A stretch of 64,000 bases of DNA. Source: Verrucomicrobiia bacterium (lineage in GTDB: Bacteria > Verrucomicrobiota > Verrucomicrobiia > Limisphaerales > UBA8199). Positions 4,301 through 55,184 of the stretch are shown one piece after another (the stretch's first letter is position 1; each line of letters opens with the position of its first letter). Made by a program: the position numbers and the translations under genes. The notes below the pieces were generated by a model. That model worked only from the letters and a program-made list of their open reading frames with translations, searched no databases and was not told the origin of the DNA. The DNA lies in the NCBI GenBank assembly GCA_035651635.1, contig DASRFK010000179.1:41686-105685 (forward strand). Direction: 5' to 3'.

Positions 4301-4343
4301 TGTCAAGTGGGTTATCAAGTTATCACGTTTTAAGTTATCAAGT
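4301..4343. repeat. Short tandem array of the octamer GTTATCAN (4 units) in the divergent moeB/PNP intergenic region
   Basis: tgtcaagt gg gttatcaa gttatcac gttttaa gttatcaa. Same repeat family as at 17432-17590, 18352-18372 and 20844-20902. Confidence 0.55.
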
Positions 4344-17414: not shown

Positions 17415-17431
17415 GCTCAGGGAATTGTTAG

Positions 17432-17590
17432 CAGGTGATCAGGTTTTCAAGTTATCACGACTGAGCTCTCTGGAACTTGTAACATCCCGCGTGGATGAAT
17501 AAAAATAGCCCGGTTCTTCAAGGGTCGCAGCCCGCGCAGACCTCCGGTTAACGCCTTGATAACCTGATACCCTGATAACTTGATAACCCT
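17432..17590. repeat. Two clusters of the GTTATCAN-family octamer repeat (17432-17459 and, on the minus strand, 17554-17590: GTTATCAA GTTATCAG GGTATCAG GTTATCAA)
   Basis: Seen directly. Intergenic region between pstB2 and the ORF6N gene. Confidence 0.55.
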
Positions 17591-17768: not shown

Positions 17769-18347
17769 GGCGAACTTCATCGCCGGAGTGTGGATTTTGG
17801 TTTGGCGCGGTGAGGGTCGGCATCCTTTGACGTGGAAGCCGATTTCGCGCGGCGGCTGTTGAGGAATGGACGGATTCATGAGTTGCCGAATGGCTTCGAA
17901 AAGGGAGCGGATGGCGTCGTCATGACCTTCGATGCGTTTTTCCAGTTCGGAGAGCTTGCGAGCGAGCTCGACGTGGCTGCCAAGCACCCGGCGGAGTTGG
18001 ACGAAGGCGCGCATGATGGCGATGTTGACCTGAACGGCGCGGTCGCTGTGGAGCACGGTGGAGAGCATGGCGACTCCTTGCTCCGTGAAGGCGAACGGGA
18101 GATACTTGAAATGCTGTCCGCGCCTTAAGCTTCCAAATTGGAATCTTAAAGCCTCGGACTCTTCGGGCGTAAGCTGGAACATGAAATCCGGCGGAAACCG
18201 GCCGAGGTTGCGCTTGACCGCTTTGTTGAGGTTGCCCGTCGAAACGCCATACAAGATGGCCAAGTCCCGATCGAGCATTACTTTCTCGCCTCGGAGCAAG
18301 TAGATTGTTCTTTGGATTCGCTCGATCGGAATAAGTGAGGATTGCAT
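17763..18347 (-). CDS. ORF6N (KilA-N-related) domain DNA-binding protein
   Basis: 194 aa. N-terminal ORF6N-like region ([49 protein letters not shown]...) with a coiled C-terminal half. Lies inside the segment bracketed by the mazG-3'-end duplication. Confidence 0.7.
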
Positions 18348-18351
18348 ATAA

Positions 18352-18372
18352 GGTTATCAAGTCATCAGGTGG
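18352..18372. repeat. GTTATCAA-GTCATCAG octamer pair immediately upstream of the ORF6N start
   Basis: Same octamer family as the other loci. Confidence 0.45.
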
Positions 18373-19416: not shown

Positions 19417-19714
19417 GCAATTGTTTAAGAGCGTGTTTTAGTCCCGTCTTCAGCCGTAACGATGCAGTTCAACCACGGATGGACACGGATGAACACTGAT
19501 AAAATGAGCGGATTGCCATCAACTTGGCTGCCTGAGCTCGCATCACCTTTAGGTGAACGGAGCAGCCTTGCCCGAGATAGCTTCTGCCCCTCTCTGATCC
19601 GTGCGAATCGGTGTTCATCGGTGGTTTTTAGCTGCATGGTTTGGGCTTTAGGTGGCCCGGCGCCGAAACCGCCTGAAGGCGGGATTCCAAACCCCCAGGC
19701 GCAATCGAAACCGA

Positions 19715-20843: not shown

Positions 20844-20902
20844 GGTTATCAGGTTGTCAGGTTATCAGGTTGTCAGGTTATCAGGTTATCAGGTAGTCAA
20901 GG
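20844..20902. repeat. Tandem array of 7 octamer units (TRTCAGGT / GGTTATCA register) in the divergent proB / phosphoesterase promoter region
   Basis: ggttatcaggttgtcaggttatcaggttgtcaggttatcaggttatcaggtagtcaagg. The largest array of the GTTATCAN family in the window. Confidence 0.65.
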
Positions 20903-24123: not shown

Positions 24124-25332
24124 ATGCTCGAACTTGAAGAAGCCGTCGGGCGCATTCTCTCGCGGGTGCCGCCAGCCGAGCCGGAGAGCGTCCCCCTGGC
24201 TCAGGCTCACGGGCGAGTGCTTCTCGAGGCGGTCAGGGCATCGATCGATTTGCCTCCCTTCGACAACTCCGCGATGGACGGCTATGCGGTTCGCTCGGAG
24301 GATACCGCAAACGCGCAGCCAGACAAACCGGCCCTCCTTCGGCTGACGGGCCGGGTGGCGGCGGGAGAGGCTTTCTCCCAGGAAGTCAGCGAAGGTTGCT
24401 GCGTTCGCATTTTCACGGGTTCGGCTCTGCCAGCCGGAGCCGATTGCGTGGTGATGCAGGAAGATACCCGCGTCGCCCCAGGCAACCCATCGGAGATTCT
24501 CGTCCTCGAAAAGGCCACGCCCTGGGAAAATGTGCGTTTGCGCGGCGAAGATGTTCGCGCAGGAACGGCCGTCGGTTTAGGTGGAAAGGTGTTGAACGCG
24601 GGGACGCTATCGGTCCTGGCCGCGGTTGGAGTGAGGGAGGTTAAAGTAGGGCGGCAACCGGCTGTGGGGCTGCTGGCCACCGGCTCCGAACTGCGGGAGC
24701 AGGGCAAAGGTTTGCGGGAGGGCCAGATTTACGAAAGCAACCGGGTCGGGTTGTCTGCGCTGATTAGGTGCGCCGGCGGACGTCCCGTGGTATTGCCGAT
24801 CGTGGCGGATCTCCTCGAGAGCACCACGCAGGCGCTGACGGAGGCGCTCGCGCGATGCGATATGGTCGTAACTGTCGGAGGAGCTTCGGTTGGAGACCTC
24901 GACCTGGTGAAGCCGGCGTTGGAAAGAGTTGGGGCCAGGCTTGATTTCTGGAAAGTGGCGATCAGACCAGGCCGCCCGTTCGTCTTTGGCCAGGCTGGCG
25001 AAAAGCTTTTGTTTGGTCTGCCGGGCAACCCTGTGTCGGCCCTGGTGACGTTTCTGCTCCTGGTGCGACCGGCGTTGCGGCGGTGGCAAGGCGCTGAGGC
25101 CACTGGTTTGCCTGGTTCTCACGGGATCCTGGCAGAACCATTGGTCAACACAGGCTCGCGGCGGCATTTCGTTCGCGTCCAAATGAGCGGAGACGGAAGG
25201 GTGTCTCGGGCCGGAGCGCAGGCTTCACATGTGCTGAGTTCGTTTGCGGCCGCGGGAGGCTTGGTGGACGTGCCGGCTGACGCAACGTTACCTGCCGGAA
25301 CACCGGTCAAAGTACTGTTCTGGGAAGTCTGA
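24124..25332 (+). CDS. moeA: Molybdopterin molybdotransferase MoeA
   Basis: MoeA N-domain (SIDLPPFDNSAMDGYAVRS) and central MoCF-binding domain. Start set at ATG 24124, since the longer ORF overlaps the upstream gene. Confidence 0.85.
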   Translation: MLELEEAVGRILSRVPPAEPESVPLAQAHGRVLLEAVRASIDLPPFDNSAMDGYAVRSEDTANAQPDKPALLRLTGRVAAGEAFSQEVSEGCCVRIFTGSALPAGADCVVMQEDTRVAPGNPSEILVLEKATPWENVRLRGEDVRAGTAVGLGGKVLNAGTLSVLAAVGVREVKVGRQPAVGLLATGSELREQGKGLREGQIYESNRVGLSALIRCAGGRPVVLPIVADLLESTTQALTEALARCDMVVTVGGASVGDLDLVKPALERVGARLDFWKVAIRPGRPFVFGQAGEKLLFGLPGNPVSALVTFLLLVRPALRRWQGAEATGLPGSHGILAEPLVNTGSRRHFVRVQMSGDGRVSRAGAQASHVLSSFAAAGGLVDVPADATLPAGTPVKVLFWEV

Positions 25333-25342
25333 CCAAGCGAGC

Positions 25343-26425
25343 TTAAAAGTGGCGGCGTGGGAAGTCGAAGTTCGGCGGCGTTGGCGGAGTGATCTTGGGC
25401 GGTTCGATCTTGGCAGGAGAATACAACGGATTCCATCGATTAAGCACGGCCGCATTGACATCCGGAAGGGTGGCGGGGCTGGCAATCGAGGTAACGGTTC
25501 CGGGGGTGGCGCTTTGCGTAAACTCGTGGCCCGATGAGGTGGGCAGCTGCTCGACGGATGGGCGGACCACGGCACGCGGCGTGCTGCCGGCTGGCAGCAA
25601 GGCATTCAGACCGGAATTAAGCTGCACCGCCGGGCCGGATCCATCGAGGACCTTTTTGAATTGGTCCATGAATGATTCCATCGAAGTTTTTGGGCCCCGC
25701 GCGTCGTCGGAGGCCGCATTGCTCTCTTTCAATCCAAAGAAGTTGTCGAAACTCGTTTTCGGCTTGGAACGGTTAAAAATGCTGTCCGGGTCCTCGTTGA
25801 CCAATTCGCGGAGCTTTTCAGCTTTATCACGCAAACCGGGCGGCAGCTTGGCATCGTCTCCAAACTCGTCCATCTTCGGCAAATCCGACCGTTTGTTCAG
25901 GTCGTTCGAACCGCTATTGTCGGAGGGTCGGTTCGGATTCTGGTGTCCGGTACCGGAACGGTTCAGATTATCATAAAACTGTTGCAGGGATGAGCTCTTG
26001 CCGCCGAGTTTCTCGTCGCCGTACAGGGAAAGCAAATCCAGGTCCTTGGAAGAACCAATGGGTCCGCCTAGTTCCTCCGCGGTCATGCCCCAATTTCTTT
26101 GACGGTCCAACAGTTCCATCAAGGTCTTGCGCGGAACTACCGTCGGATTGTTATAGGGCGCATTGAATCTCGTTTCGAGGTTCTTCGGAGTCAGGCTCCG
26201 AATCACCCGGAGTTGGTCTTCGAGTTGGTCGACCCCCTCTTTTCGGGCGGTGATCCGATTGAGATTGGTAAGGATCTCGCCACTATTGGTTTCGGAGAGT
26301 TCGATGAAACGCCGCGGCTTCTGCTGGCCTTGCGCCTGGACACGAGGGCCGGCCAAGCCCAGGCAAAGCAAAGCTGAGATGGCCGCACACACTCCAAACT
26401 TGGAAAATCCGAAACTCATTTCCAA
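25343..26425 (-). CDS. Secreted Ser/Pro/Asn/Asp-rich low-complexity protein of unknown function, last gene of the pseudopilin operon
   Basis: Signal peptide (MEMSFGFSKFGVCAAISALLCLGLAGPRVQAQ). No recognizable domain. Same strand as gspK, 60 bp downstream of it. Confidence 0.5.
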   Translation of the reverse strand: MEMSFGFSKFGVCAAISALLCLGLAGPRVQAQGQQKPRRFIELSETNSGEILTNLNRITARKEGVDQLEDQLRVIRSLTPKNLETRFNAPYNNPTVVPRKTLMELLDRQRNWGMTAEELGGPIGSSKDLDLLSLYGDEKLGGKSSSLQQFYDNLNRSGTGHQNPNRPSDNSGSNDLNKRSDLPKMDEFGDDAKLPPGLRDKAEKLRELVNEDPDSIFNRSKPKTSFDNFFGLKESNAASDDARGPKTSMESFMDQFKKVLDGSGPAVQLNSGLNALLPAGSTPRAVVRPSVEQLPTSSGHEFTQSATPGTVTSIASPATLPDVNAAVLNRWNPLYSPAKIEPPKITPPTPPNFDFPRRHF

Positions 26426-26486
26426 ACGATACCCTAAACGAACTGGAGCGAGGCGTAAAGTTAAAACTCGCCGGCGTTATAACGGA

Positions 26487-27626
26487 TCAGTTGGTCCAGT
26501 AAAAGCTGAGGATTTGTACGTCCCGCGGGTTATTGCGGCCGATGACGCCAACGAAGTGGCGGTGATATCCGGCCACCTGAGCATCAACGTGGACTTCGAA
26601 GGTGCTGCTGCGCACGCCGCAGAATTGTTGCAATGCTGCCAGCATGGGCAAACTGACTTCCGGAACGCGGCGGACCTCGCCGAGATTTCGATAAGGCCCG
26701 AACATGCCGCTGCCGTCATCCTCGCCTTGGCGGGCCGCAACGATGGCCTGAGCTACCTCGGGCGTAATGGAAGGGACCAACTGCAAAACTTCGGCCGAGG
26801 CGGTATTGATATTGATCATCCCGGTCGAAAGGGGCGTAAACAGGTTTGTTAACCCCACGGCGGGGGACGGGAGGCTGACGCCGGAGGAGCTGAACCGGCT
26901 AGTCAACGGATTATAAATTTTTTGTCCGACCTCAGGATTATCCCCAGCGGCGTAAAAATCGGCCGCGCCTTTGATCAGCAACAACTCGGAAATGTCATCA
27001 ATCGGGCCGTTCTTGGCGTAGTATGGCGGATTGAGCCCCTGGTAGAAATCGCTCTCGGCGCCCTGTATGCGAGGCGTCTCGTCGCGGTCGATCCAATCGA
27101 GAATGCAATTGATGACGGGAGTTATCTGGCCGGCATCGACCCCCATGACGAGGAGCGACTGTTGGAGGACGGCTTCGTTGGCGACGTTGATGTTGGCCTT
27201 GCTTTCGAGGTCGGTAATTTTCCAGGTGGCGCCGCCGTCCTGGATTTGAATTTCGTTTTTGAAATCGGCTAATGGGCTGTTGGAAGTGCCGGCGCCGCCC
27301 AGGCCACCGGCCCAGACTTGATTCATAGCGTCGTAGGGCTCCTGCGGGATCATGAGTTGTTGCGCCAATTCCCAGCGCGCGCTTTCAACCGCGGAGCGTC
27401 CAAGCCATTCGAGCTGGCTTTCGCTGTTGGCATTGCGCGCGAGTTTGGTCTCGACCTTCATCGAATAAGCGAAGCCGCCGGCCAGGATGGTTAGCACGAA
27501 GATCGAGATCATTACGATAATCAGCGCGATACCGGCCTGGGCTGAAGCAGCCATACCTCCTCGGCCGGTGCCACGGCGGTGCCCTGGCGGTGCAAACCCG
27601 TTTATCGAGTGAATAAGCGGTTTCAT
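26487..27626 (-). CDS. gspK: Type II secretion minor pseudopilin GspK-like protein
   Basis: N-terminal hydrophobic anchor (GIALIIVMISIFVLTILAGGFAYSM) followed by a GspK-like body (...KANINVANEAVLQQSLLVMG..., tandem helix-hairpin-helix region). ATGA start/stop overlap with the upstream gene. Confidence 0.7.
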   Translation of the reverse strand: MKPLIHSINGFAPPGHRRGTGRGGMAASAQAGIALIIVMISIFVLTILAGGFAYSMKVETKLARNANSESQLEWLGRSAVESARWELAQQLMIPQEPYDAMNQVWAGGLGGAGTSNSPLADFKNEIQIQDGGATWKITDLESKANINVANEAVLQQSLLVMGVDAGQITPVINCILDWIDRDETPRIQGAESDFYQGLNPPYYAKNGPIDDISELLLIKGAADFYAAGDNPEVGQKIYNPLTSRFSSSGVSLPSPAVGLTNLFTPLSTGMININTASAEVLQLVPSITPEVAQAIVAARQGEDDGSGMFGPYRNLGEVRRVPEVSLPMLAALQQFCGVRSSTFEVHVDAQVAGYHRHFVGVIGRNNPRDVQILSFYWTN

Positions 27627-28552
27627 CGAGGTCCGAACCCTCCCACGCTCGGCGGCAGCCCGGGTATGACGGGGCTATTTATAACTCCGGGCGAGCCTGG
27701 AGGCGTTCCAGGAATATTGGGATTAGCGGGATTGTTGCTGCCGGCTTGCTGACGGGGAGATTGCCACATGGGCGCCACCATCACCGAGGGCAAGCTCACG
27801 ATGCGGGTGACCGCCTGGCGCACCTGCGACGAGAATTTGTTGTCGGCCAGCGCCAGGCTAACCTTCACCAGCGTCGGTATCTGATTAGTGAACTTCCATT
27901 CGTCGGTCCAATCCTGCAAACGCGGATCCCAGAGCTCGGTCTTGAACTCTTTGACATTCTTGGCCAGCACCAGGGGGTAGTTCTGTTCGTCCTTGTCCAT
28001 ATCCATCAACAACGCGTTCTGGCGCAGGACTAACTGACGGCCGCCTTCGGGAGCCGATTCAAGGGAAAAGGTCACGCGCCGCACATCAAGTCCGGCGAAT
28101 TTGCCGCTGCGTGGAAAAGACGGCGATAAACGGCTGACGAAGCTCAGCATGGCTTCATTACCGTTTTCGACAACGAACGCGTAGTACTTTTGGTTCAAGG
28201 CAAAGGATTGCACCGAGCCGAGAGTCTCTTCGATGGTCCGGCCGGTGATTCTCGCGCGTTGAACGGCGGCGGCGGCATCCCCCCCCACCTTCCTTGCCCG
28301 CAAAATCGCCGTCCAGGTCGAGTAGATCGCCGCCAGAACCATCGAGAAAATGCCGATGGCGATCAGGATCTCGACAAGTGTGAAGGCGCGGACGGATCTG
28401 ACTGCCGGTTGCAGATTGCCGGTTGCAGGTTGCCGGTTATCAAGAACCGCACGTTTGTCTGCTGGGGAGTCCACTTGGAACTTGCCACTTGGAACTTGCA
28501 ACCTGCAACCGGGAAGGCGGCCGTCTCTAATAATTTTACGGGAGCACTTCAT
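27623..28552 (-). CDS. GspJ-like pseudopilin (prepilin-type N-terminal motif RA|FTLVEILIAIGIF) with 56-aa N-terminal extension
   Basis: Prepilin methylation-type hydrophobic segment. ATGA overlaps with both neighbours. Confidence 0.65.
   Translation of the reverse strand: MKCSRKIIRDGRLPGCRLQVPSGKFQVDSPADKRAVLDNRQPATGNLQPAVRSVRAFTLVEILIAIGIFSMVLAAIYSTWTAILRARKVGGDAAAAVQRARITGRTIEETLGSVQSFALNQKYYAFVVENGNEAMLSFVSRLSPSFPRSGKFAGLDVRRVTFSLESAPEGGRQLVLRQNALLMDMDKDEQNYPLVLAKNVKEFKTELWDPRLQDWTDEWKFTNQIPTLVKVSLALADNKFSSQVRQAVTRIVSLPSVMVAPMWQSPRQQAGSNNPANPNIPGTPPGSPGVINSPVIPGLPPSVGGFGPR
28402..28512. repeat. Repeat cluster in the 5' region of the gspJ-like gene: three tandem 14-mers (GCCGGTTGCAGRTT) then two tandem 14-mers (CACTTGGAACTTGC) followed by an inverted copy (AACCTGCAACCGG)
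   Basis: Seen directly. Corrected coordinates: 28402-28444 and 28472-28512. Confidence 0.6.
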
Positions 28553-29085
28553 CGGAAAGTAGGTTGGCCGGGGCCGGTCTTGGCGTCCGGGCTGTAGATC
28601 CAGATGGTCATGGTATCGACCGGTTTTTGGAGACCCCGGCGGTTAACGACGATGCCTACCTTCAAAAGACCATTTGTTTCAGCCTGCTCGCTGACAAATT
28701 CGTAGCTATAATCGGGGTAGGCTTCACCGAAGTTGCCGGAGCCGGAGATCTCCGCTTGCCGGTTGGTCTTGAGCGTCTCATAAATCTGGGAGGCAGCCAT
28801 GCCGGCATCGACATCGCCCCGCTGCAGCGCCCGTGCGTTGCGCAGAGTCGTCGAAACCAAGGCCAGGATGGCGAAGGTGGCCATGAAGAAGATGCCGCAG
28901 GCGATCATGACTTCGATGAGGCTAAAGGCCGAGGTAAGACCGAAGGCCGAAGACCGAAGGCCGAAAGAAGGCCGAAGGCCGAATGCCGAACGGAGTGTCG
29001 GGATCCGCGGGAAAGCGGCTGCGAGAGGCGGCACTGTCTGAGCGGCTGCTGAAGCGGCGGAGGATTGGAAACGCGAAATCATCAT
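28549..29085 (-). CDS. GspI-like pseudopilin (SA|FSLIEVMIACGIFF) with 53-aa repetitive N-terminal extension
   Basis: Prepilin-type motif. The N-terminal extension encodes SAFGLRPSFGLRSSAFGLTSAF from heptamer DNA repeats. ATGATG start overlapping the upstream stop. Confidence 0.65.
   Translation of the reverse strand: MMISRFQSSAASAAAQTVPPLAAAFPRIPTLRSAFGLRPSFGLRSSAFGLTSAFSLIEVMIACGIFFMATFAILALVSTTLRNARALQRGDVDAGMAASQIYETLKTNRQAEISGSGNFGEAYPDYSYEFVSEQAETNGLLKVGIVVNRRGLQKPVDTMTIWIYSPDAKTGPGQPTFR
28926..28993. repeat. Heptamer tandem repeat (CCGAAGR x ~8) inside the 5' part of the gspI-like ORF
   Basis: aggccgaggtaagaccgaaggccgaagaccgaaggccgaaagaaggccgaaggccgaatgccgaacgg. The unit length is not a multiple of 3. 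Confidence 0.6.
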
Positions 29086-29804
29086 TTGAAACGCCTCGGG
29101 TCGGACTCGACGCTGAGTAGTCCCGTGGTGACTTCGAGCGTCAATTCACGCCGCTCGCTCTGGTCGGAAACTAAAATCAGGGTCAGCTCATCACAAGTGC
29201 CATTGGGAAAAAAGCGCACGCGGGCGAGGTCGTCCTCGCGGAATTCATGCGGCAGCTTGTTAATGTCCATCAGCTCGATGGCAATTTTGCCCGACAGCTG
29301 GCCCGAAAGGCCTGAGCCGCTGGCCGGGGCGATGCCGGCCGGGGCCGGGGTTGTGGATCGGGTTGGCGGCCCGGAGGTGGCGGGCTGGGCGGCCGTTACC
29401 GCGGAAGCTGAACCGACTTCGAACCGCCCTTCGCGAGGATGAAAAATGACATCGACTTCGTGGCCTTGCAAGATCGCCCTGGCCCGAGCGTTGCTGCAGA
29501 CTTCCCTGAGATCGGATACGGCTTCGCTCATGGGAGCTTTGTGCCAGGTTTTATAGACAATCGGCACACCCATGCTCAGGACGATTCCCATGATCGCGAC
29601 CACGATCATGATCTCGATTAGCGTAAAGGCGGTTGAGTGTCTGTAACGGGTGATCAGCCCAGGCGCGCGGCAATGGGGACTCGCTGGGTTTGTCCCCCCG
29701 GCGCATGGCTGAAGGCGGAGCGCTTTCCATCGCCCGGGCGGAAGATTTGGACACGCGAGCATGTGCAATGGGTCAGCAGGCCAACCCGTGAGACATTCGA
29801 TCAC
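29082..29804 (-). CDS. GspH/GspG-like pseudopilin (TA|FTLIEIMIVVAIMGI) with 57-aa N-terminal extension
   Basis: Prepilin-type motif. GTGA start/stop overlap with gspF. 240 aa is larger than a typical GspG. Confidence 0.65.
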   Translation of the reverse strand: MIECLTGWPADPLHMLACPNLPPGRWKALRLQPCAGGTNPASPHCRAPGLITRYRHSTAFTLIEIMIVVAIMGIVLSMGVPIVYKTWHKAPMSEAVSDLREVCSNARARAILQGHEVDVIFHPREGRFEVGSASAVTAAQPATSGPPTRSTTPAPAGIAPASGSGLSGQLSGKIAIELMDINKLPHEFREDDLARVRFFPNGTCDELTLILVSDQSERRELTLEVTTGLLSVESDPRRFK

Positions 29805-31081
29805 CTGGCAATATTGGAAGTAATGGCGAACATGGCCGAGAGCACGCTCAGGAGCAAAAACCCGACTCCGATCGCCATCACGATGATCATCACCGGCTCG
29901 ATCATGTTGGTCATGACGCGCAAAGCGATGCTGAGCTCGTTTTCGTAGGTATCGGCCACGTTTTTTAACGCGCCGGGGACGTCTCCGGTGTCCTCACCGA
30001 TTTTGACCAGGTCGACCATGAGCTGCGGGAAGACCTTGCTGCGCGCCAGCGGTTGGGCGATGGTTTTGCCGTCAGTAACCTCTTCGCGGGTCTTGGCGAT
30101 GGCCTCTTTGACGATCACATTTGGCAGGATCTGTTCGGTGATCTTGAGTGCCGTGAGGACCGGGACACCATTTTCGAGCAAGGTCGAGAGCGTCCGGGCA
30201 AACTGGCCGAACAGGTTGAGTTTGACGACTTTTCCAAAGACCGGCGCGTTCATTTTCCACTGATCGAGTTTGCGGCGGCCTTCCGGGCTGGCCTGAAAGC
30301 GTTTGAACAGAATGACGATCACCGCAACCAACAGGAGCATGAGCCACCAATAGCTGGAGAAAAGATGGCTGATCCCGATGAGCATCTGGGTCATGACCGG
30401 GAGATCCACATTCAAGCCCTGAAAAATGGTCATGAATTTGGGAAGCATGTAGGTCATGAAGAAAAACATGATCGAAATGCCAACGACGGACACGAACGCC
30501 GGGTACACCAACGCGGAGGTGAACTTTGATTGGACCTGGGCGAAGCGTTCGAAATGGTCGGCCATGCGCCGCAACACTTCGACCAGGGCCCCGCTGGATT
30601 CACCGGCACGCACCATGTTGATGTACAGATCCGAAAAAATCCGGGGTTGTTTCGACATCGCATCCGAGAGGCTTCGGCCTTCCATGACGTCCTGTTTGAG
30701 CTCGCGGCTGACCTCGGCGGGAATGCCTTTGGTTTCCAGATGAGTCATGCTGTTCAGAGCCACGGTTAAGGGCATGCCTGAATTGAGCAGATTCGCCAAC
30801 TGTTGCGTGAAGGTGGCCAGTTCCTGAAGCTTTGGTTTGCGCTTGCGGGTCAGAGCCTCCCGGACCGCCGGCGGCAGAATCGCGCGCCAGTCGGTTTTTT
30901 GGCCCGTGGGCCGCTCCAGCGCCATCACCGCGCCCCCCTTGGCGGCATCCACGGCGACCGGGAACAAGCCGAGGCGCTCGATTTGAATCAGAGCCGCCGA
31001 GCGGTCCGCAACTTCAAGGACACCCTCGACAACTTCGCCCGTGCGCCGCCGGGCTCTGTACGAAAACTGTGGCATAACCAA
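29801..31081 (-). CDS. gspF: Type II secretion system inner-membrane platform protein GspF family
   Basis: 426 aa with the two T2SS_F repeats and three TM segments (e.g. GMPLTVALNSMTHLETKG..., ...NGVPVLTALKITEQILPN...). Confidence 0.9.
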   Translation of the reverse strand: MVMPQFSYRARRRTGEVVEGVLEVADRSAALIQIERLGLFPVAVDAAKGGAVMALERPTGQKTDWRAILPPAVREALTRKRKPKLQELATFTQQLANLLNSGMPLTVALNSMTHLETKGIPAEVSRELKQDVMEGRSLSDAMSKQPRIFSDLYINMVRAGESSGALVEVLRRMADHFERFAQVQSKFTSALVYPAFVSVVGISIMFFFMTYMLPKFMTIFQGLNVDLPVMTQMLIGISHLFSSYWWLMLLLVAVIVILFKRFQASPEGRRKLDQWKMNAPVFGKVVKLNLFGQFARTLSTLLENGVPVLTALKITEQILPNVIVKEAIAKTREEVTDGKTIAQPLARSKVFPQLMVDLVKIGEDTGDVPGALKNVADTYENELSIALRVMTNMIEPVMIIVMAIGVGFLLLSVLSAMFAITSNIAR

Positions 31082-31307
31082 TTAAACTCAAACACAAAAT
31101 TTAGCAAAAAGTTGCGGTATTCCAAGCCACAATTTCCGCGCGCGCGGACTTGCATTCCACCGAGATCCAGGAATCGAACCTGGCGAAGCGAAGGGTTTGG
31201 CATCGGCGGGTGACCGGGCGTCGCTGCGGGCAGGATGCCGGCGGGCCGCTGAAAGTGTTTGACCCTGGAATGAAAAAGATCGAGCTTCAGTCAAACCAAT
31301 AGTTATC

Positions 31308-31973
31308 ATGAATGTTTCTTTTACTCCACCCTCCCGCCGCCGTTTTCTCTCCGCGCTCGGGCTCGGGTCGGTGGCGCTTTTCGCCCCCGGCGCTTTCGCC
31401 GAGGAATTGCTGCGCACCGCCCACGTTGAAGAAGGGCCATTTTATCCGGACAAACTGCCGTTGGATACGGACAATGATTTGCTGATCGTGAATGATGCGC
31501 TCACGCCGGCGATTGGTGAAGTCACGCATTTGAGCGGGCGGCTCCTGGATGCAAAAGGCGACCCGATCAAGAATGCGTTGATTGAGATCTGGCAAGTGGA
31601 CAGCAAAGGGGTCTACCTGAGAGACCGTCCGGCGCATCCAGGCAATTTTGACAATAATTTCCAGGGATTTGGCCGGTTTTTGACGGGGTCAACTGGTGAA
31701 TATTATTTCCGAACGATAAAACCACTCCCCTACGAGCGACGGCCGGCCGGACACGTGCATTTTGCCGTGAAAGTGAAGGGACGTGAGAAGTGGACCACAC
31801 AACTGTTTGTGAAAGGCGCGCCGGGCAATGAAGTGGATCAGGTTTACAAGAGCATTCGTGAGCCAAAAGCCCGAGAATCAGTGACAGTGGACTTTCTGCC
31901 CGTTAAGGGTTCACGAGTCGGGGAGCTGACCGCCAAGTTCGACATGGTCATGGGTTTCACGCCGGAAACCTGA
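31308..31973 (+). CDS. Tat-exported intradiol ring-cleavage dioxygenase-like protein (protocatechuate 3,4-dioxygenase beta-subunit-like fold)
   Basis: Twin-arginine signal (SRRRFLSALGLGSVALFAPGAFA). Intradiol dioxygenase core pattern (LSGRLLDAKGDPIKNALIEIWQVDSKGVY...HVHFAV). Confidence 0.6.
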   Translation: MNVSFTPPSRRRFLSALGLGSVALFAPGAFAEELLRTAHVEEGPFYPDKLPLDTDNDLLIVNDALTPAIGEVTHLSGRLLDAKGDPIKNALIEIWQVDSKGVYLRDRPAHPGNFDNNFQGFGRFLTGSTGEYYFRTIKPLPYERRPAGHVHFAVKVKGREKWTTQLFVKGAPGNEVDQVYKSIREPKARESVTVDFLPVKGSRVGELTAKFDMVMGFTPET

Positions 31974-54939: not shown

Positions 54940-55184
54940 CACTCCTAGGGTGAACTCCCTATTCCAGCGTGCGACCATTCAACGTAAGAATGGTACTCCA
55001 ACAGATTCTCAACCGCCTTTCCAGGGAGGGGCGGTGCGTACGGAATGGTGGCCAGGTTACAAGTTGCAGGTTGCCTGGCCGTGTATCTGACCGCCGGAAG
55101 GCCGGACTTTGAACCAAGCGGGCCGAAAGGTGCTTGCAAATTGATCGTGCTCTCGCACGAACGGTGCGTAGCATCAAGGGAAGC

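Follow-up and report, generated by a model that had tools for sequence, protein, structure and literature searches.

The leader of a class III signal peptide lies on the cytoplasmic side and is removed by prepilin peptidase. Prepilin leaders have been reviewed as comprising 6-26 amino acids (aa), with type IVb pilins reaching about 30 aa, and as invariably ending in Gly, which is critical at position -1 for cleavage in classical systems (PMC4471445). Alanine is nevertheless used elsewhere, as the class III motif ends in either Gly or Ala, and an Ala(-1) residue is conserved in all Com pilins, which are processed by ComC (PMC7212644). The genes of a type II secretion system (T2SS) are not always found together either, since those of Legionella are scattered, with an lspFGHIJK cluster among them (PMC6617341). 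Here we analysed a 64-kb stretch of DNA (64,000 nt of contig DASRFK010000179.1, hereafter the window) from a metagenome-assembled genome (MAG) of Verrucomicrobiota, a member of the Verrucomicrobiia with subdivision 3 or Limisphaerales-like relatives. Six co-directional minus-strand open reading frames (ORFs) at 25343-31081 comprise gspF, an H-like, an I-like and a J-like gene, gspK and a 360-aa ORF. A start codon at or directly after the upstream stop codon is conserved throughout the clade of related loci, whatever the distance from this start to the prepilin motif. We consider the locus to be, probably, the platform-protein and minor-pseudopilin (tip complex) locus of a T2SS-like system, in which translational coupling together with a cleaved, unconstrained leader lets in-frame, stop-free repeats persist.

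The gene order, with F followed by H, I, J and K, the class III signal peptides with Glu5, the GspJ fold and the GspK signature all liken the locus to T2SS GspH-I-J-K loci, and it would share with the Legionella lspFGHIJK cluster that the remaining machinery is encoded elsewhere (PMC6617341). Unlike T2SS and Legionella loci, however, it has no gspG in the cluster, and its leaders measure 30-59 aa, those of relatives reaching 117 aa, compared with 6-26 aa in the textbook account. It further differs from T2SS loci in the predominance of Ala at position -1 and in H, I and J scores that fall below the curated family cut-offs. Com pilins (ComGC-GG of monoderms) likewise carry a class III signal peptide with Ala(-1) and depend on a prepilin peptidase (PMC7212644), whereas their leaders measure only 8-15 aa, they serve a DNA-uptake pilus, they come from a different phylum and they show no repeat-derived expansions.

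All four junctions in the window (F/H, H/I, I/J and J/K) show a 4-nt overlap of start and stop codons, which is GTGA at F/H and ATGA at the other three, just as a preliminary description made from the sequence had stated. The motifs A/FTLIE, A/FSLIE and A/FTLVE (the slash marks the predicted processing site), which agree with the class III motif as defined previously (PMC7212644), occur as STA/FTLIE in H, TSA/FSLIE in I and VRA/FTLVE in J, and lie 59, 53 and 56 codons, respectively, after the overlapping starts. The leader lengths of 53-57 aa given in the preliminary description are accordingly right for I and J, whereas the H leader is slightly longer. Glu5 and the hydrophobic helix, both required for filament assembly, are intact in the three proteins. 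The canonical start codon (ATG, GTG or TTG) nearest to the motif is found 45 codons upstream in H, where it is an ATG, 36 codons upstream in I and 30 codons upstream in J, so that even the shortest canonical reading yields a long leader, and none of the three proteins has a leader of the short type (6-26 aa, up to about 30 aa; PMC4471445). In GspK, the coupled ATG gives a 32-aa leader ahead of G/IALII, while an internal ATG at codon 25 would give one of 8 aa. No further prepilin motif was detected in the 64-kb window. The overlaps by themselves are ordinary, because such 4-nt overlaps are common in the genome, and three other gene pairs of the window, on the plus strand, show them as well. The part not expected by chance is that, across long spacers in the relatives, the overlapping start and the motif share a single open frame.

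Since gene calls are biased, we analysed the DNA of related loci directly, using 17 genome loci, at least five close metagenome loci and five loci fetched by protein look-up. The order F-H-I-J-K is kept in all 26 related Verrucomicrobiota loci. At each junction, we measured how far the motif lies from the upstream stop, and recorded whether a stop-adjacent start was in frame with the motif and whether that frame was open. Nearly all junctions have such a coupled start, at offset -1 (NTGA), at offset +2 (TGATG or TAATG) or a few nucleotides further on. An in-frame coupled start followed by an open frame was observed for 33 of the 36 spacers of at least 90 nt in the relatives and for all three in the window (36/39 together), while about one in ten would be expected by chance. 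In these long spacers, only 2 of 1685 codons in the motif frame are stop codons, compared with 18 of 1681 and 38 of 1676 in the other two frames, which corresponds to an approximately 14-fold depletion. Where the spacer is short, orthologs carry canonical 10-14-aa leaders and the same start/stop overlap, implying that the long leaders are insertions into a standard arrangement.

The J homologs, which number more than 1000 and come almost entirely from Verrucomicrobiota metagenomes, gave a similar picture. In the 105 homologs whose gene call includes the motif, the called leaders range from 3 to 76 aa (median 30), and the residue following the initial Met is mostly K, N, T, R, I, M or S, as is dictated by the ATGA overlap. 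The calls of P0042, P0107 and P0114 began after the motif, yet their DNA holds complete coupled leaders of 38-52 aa. Within clusters with at least 90% identity, leaders differ by in-frame indels (49 versus 69 aa), and one leader pair carries an apparent compensated frameshift (RPGLRIYV versus RGGPRISNV). Taken as a comparison of sequences, these data indicate that selection acts on the reading frame joining the coupled start to the motif, and a frame under selection implies that the extensions are translated. We thus take the long leaders to be translated, and the upstream, stop-overlapping starts, which the preliminary description had regarded as the real ones, hold up in that they are conserved across relatives and the extensions are kept as an open frame.

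Leader length varies from 9 to 117 aa across the clade, and there is no sequence conservation ahead of the motif. In the related locus L105, whose mature J is 80% identical to that of the window, the coupled starts are kept, including the MKCS... beginning of J, and the H leader is unrelated in sequence to the window H leader, while the I leader comprises 22 aa versus 53 aa. An AlphaFold (AF2) model predicts the J leader to be unstructured, with a predicted local distance difference test score (pLDDT) below 50 for residues 1-53 and a helix from residue 59 onwards. Protein-level selection in the leader body was considered and rejected, as the charge bias is alike in all three frames; the signal in the leaders is confined to the open frame and to the last few residues, which are rich in Arg and end in Ala or Gly. 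The preliminary description had named conservation of the extensions and of Ala(-1) in orthologs as a check. In sequence and length the extensions are not conserved, but they are kept as an open frame with stop-overlapping starts, and Ala(-1) is the majority residue without being fixed.

With regard to position -1, Ala is found in 77 and Gly in 28 of the 105 J homologs. At the H/I/J junctions, Ala occurs 48 times and Gly 14 times, and Arg is dominant at positions -2 to -5. In the related loci K always carries Gly before IALII, and pattern-matched loci from other phyla have Gly at -1 in 54 of 58 cases. Ala(-1) is a lineage preference and not a novelty, and it is the length of the leader that is unusual. 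The notion of an invariant Gly at -1, on which the preliminary description relied, is outdated, given that Ala and Gly alternate among orthologs and that ComC cleaves Com pilins with Ala(-1) (PMC7212644).

These genomes are rich in tandem arrays of short period, mostly of heptamers and often arranged as inverted pairs, which occur in intergenic DNA as well. The arrays in the leaders of the window (Table 1) show 76-80% matches and 2.6-8 copies. The TTCGGCC-type unit of the I leader was matched 5 times versus 1.6 expected. The hairpin formed by the inverted arrays of the J leader has a fold z of -3.31, and the same element is present in L105 (z -3.55) and L107 (z -2.6), the two closest of the relatives compared. 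RNA folding against shuffled sequences did not reveal structure in the H and I leaders of the window. In 255 kb of related sequence, 23 arrays of period 7 or 14 lie in H/I/J leader DNA, which makes up 2.1% of the total, versus 24 elsewhere, several of which lie in K leaders; heptamer arrays are thus about 45-fold enriched in leader DNA. The best self-similarity was found at lag 7 or 14 in 12 of 29 long leaders. Seven-residue peptide repeats such as FGLRPSA, CRLQVAG, HVSRFTF and SPKSKVQ occur in the leaders of homologs, and they recur because a 7-nt array returns to the same phase every 21 nt after having been read in all three. To persist, a heptamer would thus have to lack stops in every phase, and for inverted pairs this would hold for both strands. 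The most repeat-laden locus, L008, has a K leader of 117 aa.

We surmise that ribosomes handed over from the upstream gene translate each pseudopilin, which would lock the start codon to the junction, and that this coupling would give equimolar synthesis of the tip-complex subunits. DNA inserted between the start and the cleavage site would then either destroy expression or be translated as extra leader. The leader would be cytoplasmic and be cut off by prepilin peptidase after an Ala or Gly preceded by the Arg-rich positions -2 to -5, and, as it is discarded after cleavage, its sequence would be almost unconstrained. Tandem arrays have colonised the junctions repeatedly, with only stop-free insertions of a multiple of three nucleotides persisting; tolerance of such insertions would explain both the wide range of leader lengths and the differences between close relatives.

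Several observations weigh against this explanation. The known range of prepilin leaders ends at 26 or about 30 aa (PMC4471445), and processing of leaders of 50-117 aa would exceed it. The leader body carries little protein-level signal beyond the open frame, and its net charge is alike in all frames. A coupled start is absent from the F/H and H/I junctions of L008, where the first in-frame starts lie 43 nt and 17 nt, respectively, past the upstream stop, and from the H/I junction of L079, where the H stop lies 120 nt ahead of the I motif, in the frame of that motif, and the sole start is a TTG six codons before the motif. Besides, an internal GTG is chosen as the J start by the prokaryotic genome annotation pipeline (PGAP), whose protein has 283 aa and a 30-aa leader. 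Strong hairpins are found in 7 of 26 long spacers (z < -2, down to -6.3); such hairpins are more typical of untranslated repeat elements and could mean an RNA-level function. A general RNA-structure role of the long leaders was rejected, as only these 7 of 26 spacers have z < -2 and the median z is +0.5. Both the translation start and the cleavage are predicted here from sequence comparison.

We considered three other readings, namely spacers that are not translated, modules for regulation or phase variation, and uncleaved cytoplasmic domains, and none of them is favoured by the data. The spacers could be untranslated intergenic repeat or hairpin elements, with translation beginning near the motif, at an internal codon or one that is not canonical (in H and J, for instance, a CTG or ATC some 10 codons ahead of it), and giving ordinary short leaders. 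Such elements would account for the unconserved leader sequence built of repeats that are also found in intergenic DNA, for the strong hairpins in some spacers, for the disagreement of gene callers on the starts and for the 120-nt H/I spacer of L079 with its TTG near the motif. They would not account for the long spacers being in frame and open in 36 of 39 cases with a marked depletion of stops, nor for the in-frame indels and the apparent compensated frameshift among close variants, and the motifs in the window have no ATG, GTG or TTG within 30-45 codons. We therefore hold untranslated spacers to be distinctly unlikely. The extensions could also be functional cytoplasmic domains on uncleaved signal anchors, with Ala(-1) blocking the peptidase, and their length as well as the critical role ascribed to Gly(-1) (PMC4471445) speak for this. 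However, they are unconserved, predicted to be disordered and absent in many orthologs, Ala and Gly alternate at -1, Com pilins with Ala(-1) are processed, and Glu5 and the helix are intact. The cytoplasmic N-terminal domain envisaged in the preliminary description is unlikely as a folded unit, as the extension has no conserved sequence or length, differs even at 80% J identity and is predicted to be disordered in J, and uncleaved anchors appear to us highly improbable.

Another explanation is that the arrays and hairpins are themselves functional, either because slippage of the 7-nt units phase-varies the pseudopilins or because hairpins slow down the coupled ribosomes, tuning H-I-J-K stoichiometry or mRNA stability. 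The Neisseria opa genes, for instance, carry CTCTT repeats in the signal-peptide coding region and constitute a contingency locus. As in opa, the stretch from the start codon to the mature part of the protein holds a repeat whose unit is no multiple of three, and 7-nt arrays were indeed found inside the ORF in the I and J leaders of the window and in the leaders of relatives; the enrichment of heptamers in leader DNA, the rapid indel turnover and the retention of the J-leader hairpin in three relatives despite differences in length are also in line with a function. Unlike in opa, the arrays are short and degenerate, alleles out of frame were not observed, and variation was seen between lineages and not within populations. 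The apparent truncations that we checked all proved to be artefacts of gene calling and none a frameshifted "off" allele, and no frame-shifting copy-number variants were found in a small sample, whose cluster members with at least 90% identity show in-frame changes only. Moreover, most long leaders contain neither arrays nor hairpins, the H leader of the window has none, and the I leader of L105 is short. Given the conserved strong hairpins in a subset of leaders, a role in regulation or phase variation is conceivable, although the data do not support it, and functional arrays or hairpins in general strike us as unlikely. It seems similarly doubtful that the leader segments are evolvable control modules, in which arrays and hairpins would govern the number of ribosomes arriving at each tip-complex gene or turn that gene off by slippage and so tune or phase-vary secretion or pilus tip composition while leaving the mature proteins untouched, which would include a peptidase accepting Ala-ending leaders of more than 100 residues.

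Arrays of 7 nt are the most abundant class of long simple sequence repeats in many bacteria, where they mostly lie between genes, near start codons (PMC4679880). Those of the leaders resemble cyanobacterial short tandemly repeated repetitive (STRR) sequences and Beggiatoaceae TAACTGA arrays in their 7-nt tandem units, and the genome also has intergenic 7-, 8- and 10-nt arrays. They differ from both in lying within leaders that appear to be translated, in being stop-free in all frames and in comprising several units rather than one family. Outside the operon, a short array of the GGTTGCA type known from the J leader is found in the intergenic region at 55055-55075, between the NAD synthase gene and an ORF starting at 55134. 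The 8-nt unit GGTTATCA (15 matches versus 0.13 expected) forms arrays in at least four intergenic regions, at 4310-4343, 17426-17457, 17557-17588, 18344-18367 and 20844-20899, of which the second and third are inverted relative to each other and, with about 100 nt between them, could pair into a long hairpin. This unit could not survive in an ORF, because its reverse complement carries TGA and TAA. Two intergenic 10-nt arrays, at 19474-19500 and 42350-42382, share a CACGGA core (CACGGATGAA and TAAACACGGA).

The genes of the operon were assigned by family models, structure prediction and synteny (Table 1). The PF00482 match in GspF falls into two stretches, corresponding to two T2SSF domains; the longest ORF of gspF begins at the TTG at 31081, and the metagenome gene call begins at an ATG two codons downstream and gives 424 aa. 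GspK passes the curated cut-off of its family model NF037980. The best models for H are those of GspH, although below cut-off (PF12019, 16.1 versus 21; TIGR01708, 36.8 versus 80), and the best model for I is that of GspI, again below cut-off (TIGR01707, 23 versus 44.35); the putative assignment of these two genes follows from the conserved gene order between F and J. The N-methyl motif PF07963 scored 29.0 in H and 27.4 in J (cut-off 21.2), and 13.8, below the cut-off, in I. J scored 33.5 with TIGR01711 (cut-off 64.85), and a PDB sequence-profile search with the J alignment gave no match. The AF2 model of J, built on 37 homologs, had EpsJ (3cfi, 2ret) and XcpW (5bw0) as its top PDB matches in Foldseek (E 2.6e-5 to 3.7e-3), and J is thus predicted to have the GspJ (EpsJ/XcpW) fold. 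Residues 263-309 of J (27623-27764) form a Pro/Gly-rich C-terminal tail of about 45 aa that is predicted to be disordered (pLDDT <50), and its PGxPGxP-like character is kept in the family consensus. In H, an internal low-complexity insert rich in Ala, Pro, Ser and Thr covers residues ~131-172. Assignment to the Verru_Chthon cassette (TIGR02596-02599) was rejected, as the scores were 35.1 versus 70, 18.1 versus 51.4 and 13.3 versus 256.5. A consensus scan for promoters and terminators yielded nothing above the shuffled background, and a scan of 25000-31500 against Rfam with E up to 1 found no known RNA family in the leaders.

Table 1. Genes, leader-coding segments, mature proteins and repeats of the gspF-H-I-J-K locus, in window coordinates (TRF, Tandem Repeats Finder).
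Feature	Position	Strand	Evidence or remarks
gspF (platform protein)	31081-29801	minus	PF00482 E 1.3e-57; TIGR02120 361 bits vs cut-off 424
H-like gene, 240 aa	29804-29082	minus	start GTG overlapping gspF stop
H leader-coding segment, 59 codons	29628..29804	minus	GTG to STA/F; without tandem repeats; fold z -1.0
Mature GspH-like minor pseudopilin, FTLIEIMIVV...	29082..29627	minus	PF07963 29 bits; position between F and I conserved in relatives
I-like gene, 178 aa	29085-28549	minus	start ATG overlapping H stop
I leader-coding segment, 53 codons	28927..29085	minus	ATG to TSA/F
TTCGGCC-type heptanucleotide array in I leader, ~8 copies	28925..28990	minus	TRF; translated as FGLRPSFGLRSSAFGL
Mature GspI-like minor pseudopilin, FSLIEVMIAC...	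28549..28926	minus	TIGR01707 E 8.4e-5, below cut-off; synteny
J-like gene, 309 aa	28552-27623	minus	start ATG overlapping I stop
J leader-coding segment, 56 codons	28385..28552	minus	ATG to VRA/F
Two inverted heptamer arrays in J leader (GGTTGCA-type and complement)	28403..28515	minus	hairpin, 15-bp perfect stem
Mature GspJ-like minor pseudopilin	27623..28384	minus	Foldseek match to EpsJ/XcpW; homologs with PF11612
gspK, coupled ATG start	27626-26487	minus	NF037980 134.1 bits vs cut-off 130; PF21687 59.5 bits; PF03934 31 bits
11-nt tandem repeat in K leader	27566-27593	minus	TRF
360-aa conserved hypothetical protein	26425-25343	minus	signal-like N-terminus, low-complexity regions; 61-nt gap after gspK

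Neither the 64-kb window nor the flanks of the related loci yielded a GspD, GspE, GspG, GspC/L/M or prepilin peptidase GspO. The preliminary description had noted the lack of gspD, gspE, gspG, gspL and gspM in the operon, but its deduction that the system is not a standard T2SS does not follow, as the T2SS of Legionella is split as well (PMC6617341); by analogy, the absence of gspD, gspE and gspG probably reflects a split locus and not a non-standard machine. It had also placed a secreted low-complexity protein at the end of the operon. This 360-aa ORF has 62 homologs with 41-100% identity, which are restricted to Verrucomicrobiae and none of which has a Pfam domain. No homolog was found downstream of gspK in the relatives, and the homologs adjoin moeA, an amino-acid kinase gene and mazG, without gsp genes. 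The ORF is a neighbour of the operon and not a component of it, so that the operon does not end with it, and its candidacy as a GspL/M substitute was rejected on grounds of synteny and the lack of a family match.

In the public annotation, H of the window's contig (L099) is called from a Met after the motif, giving 175 aa. Start calls conflict among L099, P0121, L100-L102 and L105, and several J homologs are called without the motif although a full coupled leader is present; altogether, public annotations use three different start choices within this one gene family. Among pattern-matched pseudopilin genes of other phyla, open leaders of 60-72 codons that begin with a 4-nt overlap of start and upstream stop were also seen in L023, L031, L050, L070 and L020 (Syntrophales, Betaproteobacteria and an Akkermansia-labelled MAG), and judging from these sequences, long coupled leaders may not be confined to Verrucomicrobiota.

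The locus is an unusual variant of an ordinary secretion system, and the practical consequences are modest, namely better annotation and a question about the substrate range of prepilin peptidases. If the long leaders are indeed cut, the leader length accepted by prepilin peptidases is far greater than has been assumed, and pilin-prediction tools and start callers that expect short leaders would mis-annotate these genes. The locus would also offer a clean natural example of how translational coupling and a discarded peptide together create a "safe harbour" for tandem repeats in coding DNA.

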